Virus record (IMG/VR): IMGVR_UViG_3300045988_019953
Location: 1 to 42,581 of that record
From: a virus
Lineage: Duplodnaviria; Heunggongvirae; Uroviricota; Caudoviricetes
Length of the DNA stretch: 42,581 nucleotides
Reading direction: 5' to 3' (one strand)
Part shown: in pieces, positions 4,305 to 42,581 of the stretch
Position numbering within the stretch: position 1 is the stretch's first letter
How the letters are laid out: the number at the start of each line of letters is the position of its first letter
Notes under the pieces: generated by a model
What the model saw: only the letters and a program-made list of their open reading frames with translations
What the model was told of the DNA's origin: nothing
Database searches by the model: none
Translations under genes and position numbers: made by a program

Positions 4305-4333
4305 TTGACTTTTCACTAAAAATGTGCTAAGCT
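4305..4333 (+). promoter_or_regulatory. Sigma70-like promoter TTGACT-17-TAAGCT driving conserved element copy A
   Basis: -35 at 4305-4310, -10 at 4328-4333; 28 of 29 positions identical to promoter at 15639-15667. Confidence 0.55.
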
Positions 4334-4339
4334 CCACCT

Positions 4340-4560
4340 GAGCTTGTGAAGTATGAACAAGCGACCGTGTCACGGCAGGAAACGGAGCGGGGCGTTAGCC
4401 CTGAGTGTAGTTTCGCTGACGCGTCCGGAAGGCCACTGGTCTATTGCAAAAATCCCCTAAGTTACATAAGTAACTAATTTTCCTTAAGTTTCTTAATGTG
4501 CTGTAGATTCGCAACCGTAAAAATGTAACGATTATTGGGCAGGCTTAAAGCCTGCCCTTT
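4340..4560 (+). ncRNA. Candidate structured small RNA, copy A
   Basis: Promoter-to-terminator unit with no ORF; about 115-nt core conserved with copy B, with two compensatory stem substitutions. Confidence 0.35.
4537..4560 (+). terminator. Rho-independent terminator (GGGCAGGCT-TAA-AGCCTGCCC plus TTT)
   Basis: 9-bp GC-rich stem followed by a short T tract. Confidence 0.55.
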
Positions 4561-4630
4561 AGTTACCAAGTAATAAGAATCTACGGCACAACCCAACCTG
4601 AAGAATCACAACGGCAACGTAACTAATCTC

Positions 4631-4659
4631 TTGCACACCCCAATATAATAGGATACTAT
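4631..4659 (+). promoter_or_regulatory. Early promoter TTGCAC-17-TACTAT with dyad AATAG-N4-CTATT (4647-4660)
   Basis: Hexamers with 17-bp spacer; 23-mer nearly identical to those at 15540 and 24940; conserved leader TCACTTATCGAAACGAG. Confidence 0.55.
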
Positions 4660-4693
4660 TCACTTATCGAAACGAGACTGAGGAGTGAGGGTT

Positions 4694-4876
4694 ATGTTTA
4701 AGAAGGGTCAGTTGGTGAAAACAAAGCGCAGCCGGCAACACGTAATAGTTACCAAAGACGAGGATGAATATGGTGTTGTCGCCGTATTTAGCCTTATACG
4801 GAAGAAACGTGGTTATGTTCATCACAATAATTTACAGCTTATCGGCAACAATTTTAAATTCAAAGGGGCGAAGTGA
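4694..4876 (+). CDS. Hypothetical early protein (60 aa)
   Basis: ATG 4694 after AGGAG; track ORF begins at upstream GTG 4685; stop overlaps next start (TGATG). Confidence 0.5.
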   Translation: MFKKGQLVKTKRSRQHVIVTKDEDEYGVVAVFSLIRKKRGYVHHNNLQLIGNNFKFKGAK

Positions 4877-5166
4877 TGGGAGAATTACCTCAATGTGAAC
4901 GCCAGTTCATTAGCTGGTTTATCCCTGTAAATAATTTCAACATTTCTGATTTGCTGGAACTAAGAGAAAAAGGTGCTCTGTGGGTGTGTAACGCCCGAGA
5001 CGTAACAAAGGCCAGGGTATGGAATTTTAGCCTACTGCGTCGCCCTAATAAGTCAGGGGCGGGTGCGGTAACGATGGACTTGTTACATCGCAAAGGTAAG
5101 TTGTTTATGAGAACGGCATCGAATCATGATGCCCGTGCCGACGACTCTGAGGGAGGTTGCCGTTAA
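4876..5166 (+). CDS. Hypothetical protein, paralog A of 15272-15517
   Basis: About 80 percent identical by eye to the minus-strand ORF at 15272-15517; translationally coupled to the upstream gene. Confidence 0.6.
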   Translation: MGELPQCERQFISWFIPVNNFNISDLLELREKGALWVCNARDVTKARVWNFSLLRRPNKSGAGAVTMDLLHRKGKLFMRTASNHDARADDSEGGCR

Positions 5167-5711: not shown

Positions 5712-5858
5712 TGTTCAATAGTTTGGGATTTTACCGAGTGACTTACGCTGCTACACAGCAGCGTATCATTTTTCTCATTTTTGTTCTATTTCACCAAACG
5801 CAACAATAGAAGCGACTATTGCAGGAGATGCAACAATACAAACCCCAATAAAATGTAC

Positions 5859-15246: not shown

Positions 15247-15272
15247 AAAGGCCCCTTTCGGGGCCTTAGTTT
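15247..15272. terminator. Bidirectional rho-independent terminator (AAGGCCCC-TTTC-GGGGCCTT)
   Basis: 8-bp GC stem with A/T-rich flanks on both sides; between convergent genes. Confidence 0.65.
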
Positions 15273-15517
15273 TATCGCACTCTCATAAATAGCTTACCTT
15301 TGCGCTGTAACAAATCCATGCCAACAGCACCTTCACCAGATTTGTTCGGGCGGCGCATTAAACTAAAGTTCCATACTCTAGCTTTTGAAGCATCTTTCGC
15401 GTTGCACACCCAAAGTCTACCGCTTTCTCTTAGGTCAAATAAGTCCGATATACTGAAATTATTAACTGGTATGAATCCGCTAATGAACTCACGTTCACAA
15501 CTAGGTAATTCTTGCAT
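15272..15517 (-). CDS. Hypothetical protein, paralog B of 4876-5166
   Basis: 81 aa; ATG 15515-15517 with GGAGGG RBS; about 80 percent identical by eye to paralog A. Confidence 0.6.
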   Translation of the reverse strand: MQELPSCEREFISGFIPVNNFSISDLFDLRESGRLWVCNAKDASKARVWNFSLMRRPNKSGEGAVGMDLLQRKGKLFMRVR

Positions 15518-15638: not shown

Positions 15639-15667
15639 TTGACTTTTCACTAAAAATATGCTAAGCT
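15639..15667 (+). promoter_or_regulatory. Sigma70-like promoter TTGACT-17-TAAGCT driving conserved element copy B
   Basis: 28 of 29 positions identical to promoter at 4305-4333. Confidence 0.55.
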
Positions 15668-15673
15668 CCACCT

Positions 15674-15870
15674 GAGCTTGTGAAGTATGAACAAGCGACC
15701 GCGGCGCGGGCAGGTAACGGAGCGGGACGTAAGTCCTGAGTGTAGTTACGCTGACGCGTTCGGAAGGGCCATACTCTATTGCTTGTGTAAAAAGTAACTG
15801 ATTTACTGAGATTGCGCCGTTTCTATGTTTAAATGATAAGGACTAGCGCCCCGCTTTACGGCGGGGCTTT
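15674..15870 (+). ncRNA. Candidate structured small RNA, copy B
   Basis: Conserved core shared with 4340-4450, bounded by promoter and terminator; no ORF. Confidence 0.35.
15848..15870 (+). terminator. Rho-independent terminator (GCCCCGC-TTTACG-GCGGGGC plus TTT)
   Basis: 7-bp GC stem followed by a short T tract; ends copy B just before the Rz-like gene. Confidence 0.5.
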
Positions 15871-15891
15871 ACTTATCGAGAAAGGAGAAAC

Positions 15892-16278
15892 ATGAATCTT
15901 AAAGCAACTGTCGTAGCGGGAGCATGTTTCATCATCCTGGCTTACACACACGGCATCTACCAGTACCGCAGCGGCTGGGCCGAAGGCCGGGCTAATCTCG
16001 TTTCGCAGCAACAGCAGAAAGCACAGGCTGAGTTAGCGAAGAAAACACAACGGCAGCAGCAGGATGAATCGAAGGCAGCCGCCGCTGACAACGAAGGCAA
16101 GACGAAATCAGAGGTGATTACCCGTGAAGTCGTTAAGTACATCAAAACGCCTGGCCGCAGCGTGTGCACTTTCGATGATGCTCGCGTCCTGCTCAAGTCC
16201 CGCGCCGTCACAAATGCCAACTCCATCCCCGGATATGACGATGATGCAGCCGCCGTGCAAACTGGCCCCGCCAAGTAG
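15892..16278 (+). CDS. i-spanin (Rz-like)
   Basis: 128 aa; N-terminal TM (VVAGACFIILAY), Q-rich coiled coil, periplasmic C-terminus; contains an out-of-frame lipoprotein ORF. Confidence 0.7.
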   Translation: MNLKATVVAGACFIILAYTHGIYQYRSGWAEGRANLVSQQQQKAQAELAKKTQRQQQDESKAAAADNEGKTKSEVITREVVKYIKTPGRSVCTFDDARVLLKSRAVTNANSIPGYDDDAAAVQTGPAK

Positions 16279-18223: not shown

Positions 18224-18239
18224 GGTTAAGATATAATCG

Positions 18240-18263
18240 AGAGGGACTTCGGTCCCTCTTTTC
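18240..18263 (+). terminator. Rho-independent terminator (AGAGGGAC-TTCG-GTCCCTCT plus TTTT)
   Basis: 8-bp stem with UUCG loop and T tract after capsid gene. Confidence 0.7.
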
Positions 18264-22748: not shown

Positions 22749-22772
22749 AAGGCCCCTTTCGGGGCCTTTTTC
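22749..22772. terminator. Bidirectional terminator (AAGGCCCC-TTTC-GGGGCCTT)
   Basis: Same 16-mer core as 15250-15265; T tract on plus strand, A/T-rich on the other side. Confidence 0.65.
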
Positions 22773-36763: not shown

Positions 36764-36942
36764 AATACTAATTCCTTACGCCCGAACGCCGTAACGTTTC
36801 CGGTTACATCTTCGATAACCAGTTTACCGTTCGACTCGACGAACACCGTATCAACGGCAACAGGACGACGGGTCTTAACGTTGAAAATCATGTCGCCAGG
36901 TACGATGTCACGTGCTGGTTTGCGGTCGTATTCGTGTTTCAT
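36751..36942 (-). CDS. Hypothetical protein (63 aa)
   Basis: Track ORF with RBS AAGGA; first gene after minus-strand promoter at 36976-37004. Confidence 0.45.
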   Translation of the reverse strand: MKHEYDRKPARDIVPGDMIFNVKTRRPVAVDTVFVESNGKLVIEDVTGNVTAFGRKELVLCVK

Positions 36943-36972
36943 TTCTCAATTCCTTATATTGTTGGTGTATGA

Positions 36973-42504: not shown

Positions 42505-42581
42505 TGGTCAATTAAATGCCGAGTTTTATGTTCGCAGTGCATAGCCCACCCATACATCGACTCGAAGACATAAAAGTCTGG
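42505..42581. repeat. Terminal direct repeat, right copy (identical to 1-77)
   Basis: Exact 77/77 identity with window start. Confidence 0.9.

Follow-up and report, generated by a model that had tools for sequence, protein, structure and literature searches.

A structured RNA element duplicated ahead of late operons in a Kagunavirus genome, near-universal in Guernseyvirinae, and its possible role in transcriptional read-through

The 42,581-nucleotide stretch of DNA analysed here (the window; IMG/VR record IMGVR_UViG_3300045988_019953) is the complete genome of a Kagunavirus siphophage of the subfamily Guernseyvirinae, whose nearest record is Escherichia phage ST20. It carries two copies of a member of a previously uncatalogued structured RNA family that is near-universal in the Guernseyvirinae, and both copies head late functions. 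As a tentative reading, to which we give somewhat less than even confidence, the leader RNA may make transcription termination-resistant in cis, working like the put sites of phage HK022 or the nut sites of phage lambda.

Results

Layout of the two copies

Each copy opens with a promoter of the form TTGACT-N14-TGn-TAAGCT, continues with a core of ~108 nt and a spacer, and closes with a G+C-rich hairpin whose U-tract is weak:

4305-4333, + strand: copy A promoter (activity predicted from sequence); -35 TTGACT 4305-4310, TG 4325-4326, -10 TAAGCT 4328-4333
4340-4447, + strand: copy A core RNA; hairpin P1 4342-4362, linker GA, long hairpin 4365-4428 (outer helix 4365-4374 with 4420-4428, middle helix 4376-4383 with 4410-4418, apical P3 4388-4403), tail AAGG...UAUUGC 4429-4447
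4468-4518, + strand: copy A spacer blocks, common to copy B and other phages; AAGTAACTAATTT 4468-4480, GATTCGCAACCGT 4506-4518
4537-4560, + strand: copy A terminator-like hairpin, GGGCAGGC-TTA-GCCTGCCC followed by TTT; stem 4537-4557
15639-15667, + strand: copy B promoter (predicted); -35 TTGACT 15639-15644, TG 15659-15660, -10 TAAGCT 15662-15667
15674-15782, + strand: copy B core RNA; P1 15676-15696, long hairpin 15699-15763 (outer helix 15699-15708 with 15755-15763, middle helix 15711-15718 with 15745-15753, P3 15723-15738), tail 15764-15782
15792-15820, + strand: copy B spacer blocks; AAGTAACTGATTT 15792-15804, GATTGCGCCGT 15810-15820
15848-15891, + strand: copy B terminator-like hairpin; stem 15848-15867, then TTTACTTATCGAGAAAGGAGAAAC, with the spanin ATG at 15892

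The repeated segments (4305-4447 and 15639-15782) are ~89% identical and differ by one 1-nt indel. When the whole genome was searched with a covariance model that had 13 variants as input, only copies A (134 bits) and B (148.8 bits) were recovered, the next match scoring 10 bits. The repeat is well outside what chance would give, and ~450 phage genomes contain the same element. An earlier note on this DNA, made from the sequence alone, had located both copies, their promoters and four hairpin strings, all of them exactly. Its promoter call, TTGACT and TAAGCT at a spacing of 17 nt, holds in both copies, but it had missed the TG that lies one base 5' of each -10 hexamer and makes both of them predicted extended -10 promoters. 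All homologues keep both hexamers, their spacing of 17 nt and the TG, the base between the TG and the -10 being C, A or G; the form found in relatives of Salmonella phage Jersey reads T(T/A)GACT-N14-TGn-TACGCT. The spacer blocks were identified by eye, from the alignment and a comparison of downstream regions, without statistics.

The -10 hexamer is repeated across the predicted start site (TAAGCT-N5-TGAGCT at 4328-4345 and 15662-15679; TACGCT-N3-TACGCT in phage Jersey, L123 7299-7313), and the two -10-like hexamers co-vary between the Kagunavirus-type and Jersey-type groups. This is a likeness to HK022 putL, for which a -10-like hexamer within the first transcribed bases has been reported and a sigma-dependent pause element proposed (PMC9378689). 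The repeated hexamer could be such a pause element or a by-product of the P1 stem. As a separate observation, the genome ends (1-77 and 42505-42581) are identical over 77 bp, which probably reflects overlap from the assembly of a circular contig rather than a true terminal repeat, because 77 is a common assembler k-mer size.

A conserved fold of the + strand transcript

The structure was derived from covariance-model matches, minimum-free-energy folds and pair counts. The common fold consists of the 5' hairpin P1, a linker of 1-2 bases, an irregular hairpin of 64-80 nt and a 19-nt unpaired tail (AAGG...UAUUG), and independent minimum-free-energy folds of four divergent types yielded the same architecture. 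In the outer helix of the long hairpin, CCG, a bulged pyrimidine and GGNGCG pair with CGCNUU-CGG; inward of it follow a purine-rich internal loop, the middle helix P4, a second internal loop and the apical helix P3. For copy B, the minimum-free-energy and centroid folds coincide (-39.9 kcal/mol, compared with -27.4 for the opposite strand), and generally the + strand is the more stable by 3-12 kcal/mol. Single-sequence z-scores are modest (-1.4 to -2.9), so that the case for structure rests on covariation.

Covariation was assessed across 38 distinct sequences aligned by hand, segment by segment and padded with N, since MAFFT misaligned the divergent types when given raw sequences; run on the padded segments, it left the columns in register. 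In this alignment, which was built to fit the proposed helices and whose percentages therefore lean towards them, standard pairs occupy 97.7% of 1,078 cells, as against 78.7% when the 3' partners are shuffled, and none of 500 shuffles came up to 97.7%; with the partners slid by 1-3 columns, 27-43% remain paired. Both sides have changed in 16 of 31 pairs, but 113 of the 500 shuffles also reach 16, and this count is no test on its own. More telling are individual pairs whose column alignment is unambiguous: pair 30-97 of the outer helix is C-G in 19, U-A in 16 and A-U in three distinct sequences, and pair 40-85 of the middle helix occurs as U-A, A-U, C-G or G-C. About 11% of paired cells are G-U, which makes the signal specific to the + strand. 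The selection on RNA structure that the earlier note had proposed from two copies is thus borne out by covariation across all 38 homologues. The better folding of the + strand, its G-U pairs and the promoter together identify the + strand transcript as the selected molecule, and the data support a structured non-coding RNA with selected pairing.

The individual hairpins fared differently. The GGGC-GTTA-GCCC hairpin of the earlier note is the apical helix P3 and is well supported. Its second hairpin, a local CCGY-loop-RCGG stem, is compatible with all sequences but shows a single compensatory change in one lineage only (this genome and ST20). The CCGY strand and the loop pair better with a segment ~60 nt downstream (4420-4428 in copy A, 15755-15763 in copy B), where covariation is broader, and the segment more probably pairs with this outer-helix strand than with the local RCGG. 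The two pairings are mutually exclusive, and the local hairpin may exist transiently while the RNA is being made; in copy A, two mismatches (U-U and A-C) interrupt the outer helix, and the local CCGT/ACGG hairpin is intact. A third covarying helix had escaped the first reading (GAAAC/GUUUC in copy A versus GUAAC/GUUAC in copy B). In Jersey-type phages, P1 is still a hairpin despite a wholly different sequence (ACGCU/AGCGU versus GCUUGU/ACAAGC). Conservation is greatest at the junction of the two hairpins (CCG-C-GGNGCG with CGCNUU-CGG, then AAGG) and the apical parts vary freely, a pattern that suggests a docking surface rather than a ligand pocket.

Two further structural candidates were dropped. 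A tail helix proposed by RNAalifold (AGGG/CUCU) was rejected because its fourth pair is G-C, C-G, G-G or C-C depending on the variant. The sequence UCCGGAAGG resembles the apical hairpin of 4.5S RNA; the likeness was set aside, as Rfam gave no SRP match and the CGG is paired elsewhere. As the earlier note had supposed, no known family accounts for the element: no Rfam 15 family, 6S, SRP and tmRNA among them, matched at gathering thresholds over the whole genome, and with E values up to 10 the core was still without a match, riboswitches included, while the terminator hairpins and the spacer gave sub-threshold chance matches only.

Distribution among phages

A BLAST search of 50,697 phage records found the Kagunavirus form at 224 places in 181 records. 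Two copies are present in 43 of these records and one in the rest (138 of 181 are without copy A). In single-copy phages, the element always occupies the position of copy B, between a Hoc-like head gene and an Rz-like spanin gene, such that one copy always lies just 5' of the spanin, scaffold and capsid genes. In Salmonella phage Jersey, which BLAST did not match, the covariance model identified a diverged copy at the same position (33 bits, E 6.5e-9); this Jersey form is present in 269 further records. Since 464 records encode a capsid protein at least 80% identical to that of this phage, compared with 181 plus 269 records with the element, nearly the whole subfamily Guernseyvirinae carries it.

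Beyond the subfamily, the element is absent from 5,426 complete E. coli genomes, and pattern scans of IMG/VR and metagenomes returned no relatives outside the Guernseyvirinae. A looser IMG/VR pattern (TGAGTGTAGN5GCTGAC) hit 53 loci, none of them real by the covariance model. An outer-helix pattern hit 120 stretches in metagenomes, and eight of 80 loci checked were real, all of known types, the others being G+C-rich chance matches. Judged by the capsid protein, the closest outgroup is Serratia phage ZDD2 (43% identity), and there the element's position has no intergenic gap.

Several phages show rearranged or different leaders at these sites. Where copy A is missing, as in K1G, its site is occupied by a different sigma-70 promoter with different hairpins. 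In K1G (L102, 36770-36800), an inverted copy B-type terminator hairpin (GCCCCGC...GCGGGGC) lies there on the opposite strand, which suggests past recombination between the two leader regions. The element of L114 (2220-2340, at the copy B position) looks like a recombinant of the two copies, with the 5' two-thirds of the copy A type of L093 and a 3' end of the copy B type. In several other Kagunaviruses, the copy A leader contains a run of CTCA/CACT units, variable in number, between the core and a GGTGCCTTCGGCACC hairpin (L091 ~1700-1740 compared with L090, L092 and L096-L101). At the copy A position of phage Jersey (L123 38860-39200), a TTGACA-17-TAAGTT promoter precedes a different leader. 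This leader contains a separate 10-bp hairpin (GCGGTTCCGC...GCGGAAACGC) and segments similar to the tail and the spacer blocks (AAGTAACTGA, CCGGAAG and AGTCTACTT); the covariance-model match there has an E value of 0.06.

Operon context and downstream hairpins

Copy A lies in a divergent region, between leftward replication genes and a long rightward operon of small genes followed by holin, endolysin, terminase, portal and head-morphogenesis genes. The operon behind copy B comprises spanin, scaffold, capsid, connector and tail-tube genes and extends to a bidirectional terminator at 22749, with a good terminator directly after the capsid gene (18239-18260).

In every variant of every phage examined, a hairpin stands between the core and the first gene. 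The gap from core to hairpin is 89 nt in copy A and 65 nt in copy B, and generally 60-100 nt and variable. The terminators that the earlier note had placed after each copy are there as stems, followed by TTTAGTT in copy A and TTTACTT in copy B, but their U-tracts are weak, the uninterrupted run being three bases in both copies here and two in phage Jersey. Jersey-type phages retain the copy B hairpin, with a compensatory G-C to A-U change, and its U-tract is only UU. An intrinsically terminated small-RNA gene would combine a promoter with an efficient terminator, made of a G+C-rich stem and no fewer than 5-6 U residues in a row; of these, the promoter motif and the stems are present, and the U runs amount to only three and two bases. 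The free-standing small RNA of about 200 nt envisaged in the earlier note is not established: the copy B hairpin runs through TTTACTTATCGAGAAAGGAGAAAC, which contains the spanin ribosome-binding site, directly into the ATG. With no room for a second promoter, and no other promoter site, the head operon must be transcribed through this hairpin, which favours a cis-acting leader.

Behind the hairpin of copy A stands a promoter-like motif (ATAATAGGATACTATTCA, 4645-4662). For the tail operon at 25080 there is a separate extended -10 promoter, without the element. The motif behind copy A, as ATAATAGGnTACTATTCA, occurs seven times in the genome (999, 1044, 4645, 5873 and 41218 on the + strand; 15541 and 24941 on the - strand), compared with 0.08 occurrences expected, each time 5' of a gene start, often right after a terminator, and is followed by a shared leader, ACTTATCGAAACGAG. 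It includes a TATAAT-like -10 and no -35 at normal spacing, and judging from its sequence could represent another class of promoter, one dependent on a phage factor; no phage RNA polymerase gene was noticed in the genome. For a related phage, this motif is on record as a 'phage promoter' consensus (PMC9825357). Two paralogous small proteins, 79% identical over 80 amino acids and without a Pfam match, are encoded at 4873-5166 (+) and 15272-15517 (-). The former is the second gene behind copy A; the latter is an insertion that brings a promoter motif of its own, lies between a terminator at 15248 and copy B, and is missing from ST20 and K1G.

Discussion

What the sequences show directly is a set of promoter motifs, a conserved structure with a defined place and strand, and hairpins downstream of it. 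From these, the following sequence of events can be envisaged. Host RNA polymerase with sigma-70 would start at ~4340 and ~15674, and the first ~110 nt of the transcript would fold into a short and a long irregular hairpin with an unpaired tail. The folded leader would remain bound to its own polymerase and render it resistant to pausing and termination, so that the enzyme would pass the leader hairpin 60-100 nt downstream and then the terminators at 5744 and 18239, reaching the lysis, packaging and head genes. The leader might act alone, as HK022 put does, or serve as a loading site for a phage or host factor, as lambda nut does for N; the late-gene context may make a factor-dependent, timed switch attractive.

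Several features argue for this read-through reading. Each copy lies a few bases from a predicted extended -10 start and faces a long + strand operon; the copy B hairpin borders directly on the ribosome-binding site of the spanin gene, and the terminator at 18239-18260 lies inside an operon that ends at 22749. The hairpin ahead of the first gene recurs in every phage examined, the element is near-universal, the transcribed strand is the one under selection, and conservation peaks at the hairpin junction. Moreover, a comparison of the early-region proteins with PHROGs and Pfam and a scan for Arg-rich motifs revealed no recognisable Q-like or N-like antiterminator, which is a further point in favour of a cis-acting, polymerase-modifying leader. 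Other observations weigh against it. The promoter-like motif at 4645 means that copy A could be a self-contained RNA gene, and the 138 of 181 Kagunaviruses without copy A indicate that this copy is dispensable there. With U-tracts as weak as UUUA, or UU in Jersey, passing the hairpins may need little antitermination. In addition, the tail operon lacks the element, homology to put in sequence or structure is lacking, and an RNA acting alone would give the late genes no temporal control. The one transcriptome study of a close relative, an infection time course of the ST20-like phage vB_Eco_K1B4 (PRJNA939978 / PRJCA028359), offers gene-level counts only (PMC12645636).

The nearest functional parallel may be HK022 put, a cis-acting RNA that suppresses termination and pausing by way of the beta-prime zinc-binding domain of RNA polymerase and needs no protein factors. 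The layout of put is found here as well, with a promoter-proximal RNA, as for putL just after PL, present in more than one copy, 5' of terminators and at the head of long operons; both elements occur twice per genome in different operons with terminators after each copy, both consist of two stem-loops joined by 1-2 bases with the junction bases most conserved, and in neither case is a dedicated protein recognisable. The described put consists of two stem-loops directly after a promoter, in two copies per genome (PMC9378689). The two elements differ in size, the hairpins here measuring 21 nt and 64-80 nt versus ~32 and ~37 nt for the put stems and the conserved length ~108 nt versus ~73 nt, and in setting, since put belongs to lambdoid temperate phages, whereas the present element, whose antitermination activity is putative, is found in virulent siphophages. 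When the complete HK022 genome, putL and putR included, was searched with the element model alone (covariance model R1, filters off), the early region remained empty. The best match (36890-36963; 13.4 bits, E 0.03) fell in the PR' promoter region and was discarded, its similarity being confined to the promoter.

Lambda nut sites, composed of boxA and boxB, turn RNA polymerase terminator-resistant together with N, and they too are RNA sites just after two promoters, in two copies per genome. However, the present element is several times larger and contains no 15-nt boxB hairpin with a GNRA-like pentaloop, and no N-like protein was identified here. A boxA motif would read CGCUCUUA or GCUCUUUA. 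The best match to CGCUCUUA in either leader has three mismatches; within the conserved parts of the two leaders, lambda boxA is matched with three or more mismatches and the 13-base rrn boxA with 4-5. A near match to the boxA core (GCCCTTTA) occurs only where the copy A terminator ends, in its 3' arm together with the T-tract. A boxA-like reading of UCUAUUG was considered and does not fit. Lacking a match at the put loci as well as boxA and boxB, the element can be said to work like put or nut on the proposed reading, and is not a member of either family. In its arrangement, copy B also recalls the late unit of lambda, in which PR' is followed by the 6S leader RNA, the terminator tR' and the lysis and structural genes under the control of Q: a strong, constitutive-looking sigma-70 promoter is followed by a leader of ~200 nt up to a terminator, then by the spanin and head genes, and the -35 hexamer TTGACT is that of HK022 PR'. 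The targets of Q are DNA and a paused complex that depends on sigma, and the lambda leader RNA lacks a conserved structure; here, by contrast, RNA pairing is under selection, and no Q homologue was found. A bolder version of our proposal, which we consider rather unlikely, is that the element represents a second class of factor-independent, polymerase-binding antiterminator, structurally unrelated to put and universal in this subfamily of virulent E. coli and Salmonella phages, that takes the place of a Q-like or N-like protein in expressing the late genes.

Among the other explanations, a small protein (for instance Jersey gp08, or a 43-codon GTG open reading frame at 4346-4477) deserves next to no credence. 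Open frames of 36-66 codons exist and GenBank contains coding-sequence calls over the element, yet these conflict in strand, frame and length between records, variants are separated by 1- and 2-nt indels, and the substitutions form compensating pairs within stems. No frame is common to copy A, copy B and the Jersey type, in agreement with the earlier note, which had seen no convincing open reading frame. A leader mini-ORF starting at the UUG of UAUUG was likewise rejected because its start is not conserved (UUA in L100, UCG in K1G, CUG in L126 and L133). A riboswitch or ligand-sensing attenuator controlling the downstream hairpin, for its part, would account for a conserved structured leader 5' of a terminator-like hairpin and for the mutually exclusive pairings of 4365-4375 and 15699-15709. 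Its internal-loop bases, however, are type-specific (GGAG/AGUGUA, GAAACGA/GGAGUGA and UGAAGC/UAGCGUAAC), the core does not overlap the hairpin, from which a variable spacer of 60-100 nt separates it, and no Rfam riboswitch matched even at E = 10, so that a sensor of this kind appears very unlikely.

Two further possibilities carry more weight, each of them still improbable in our view. The element could be a free, trans-acting small RNA of ~195-225 nt, extending from promoter to hairpin, that would be abundant and act as a decoy or antisense RNA on a host or phage target, with the two copies raising the dose. The promoter-to-hairpin unit in each copy would fit, as would the conservation of the core and not the spacer, and the motif at 4645-4662 means that the genes behind copy A need not depend on it. 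Yet the head operon, having no other promoter, implies that the copy B hairpin is no efficient stop; the U-tracts are short and nearly absent in Jersey-type phages, a long conserved single-stranded stretch that might seed pairing is lacking, and no match in E. coli genomes hints at mimicry of a host RNA. Alternatively, the leader could act in cis after transcription, as a stabiliser of the mRNA 5' end, a shield of the 215-nt untranslated leader against Rho, or an operator through which a phage protein governs how the spanin, scaffold and capsid message is translated or degraded. Its place at the 5' end of the operon mRNA, a strong structure that would disfavour Rho loading and RNase E entry, and the Shine-Dalgarno-like purines of the tail (AAGG/GGAGG) are consistent with such a role. 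Mere shielding, however, needs no helix-junction sequence conserved across Kagunavirus and Jerseyvirus, the UUG start of the possible mini-ORF is lost in several variants, and the first start codon lies 110-150 nt from the element. The weak U-tracts, the dispensable copy A and the second promoter motif behind it keep both of these alternatives alive beside the read-through reading.

To our knowledge, very few RNAs reprogram the bacterial elongation complex alone, and HK022 put is the sole one with a solved structure on the polymerase. If the read-through reading is true, a second, unrelated fold on E. coli RNA polymerase would reveal the essential features of such RNAs, and the antiterminator activity would be testable with existing in vitro systems. 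Guernseyvirinae are common in phage therapy collections, which include K1 phages and Jersey-like Salmonella phages, and as far as we know their transcription programme is essentially unstudied. In ~450 GenBank records, the locus is left blank or annotated with spurious 'hypothetical proteins'. Even if a factor is needed, the element marks a late control point of the Guernseyvirinae.
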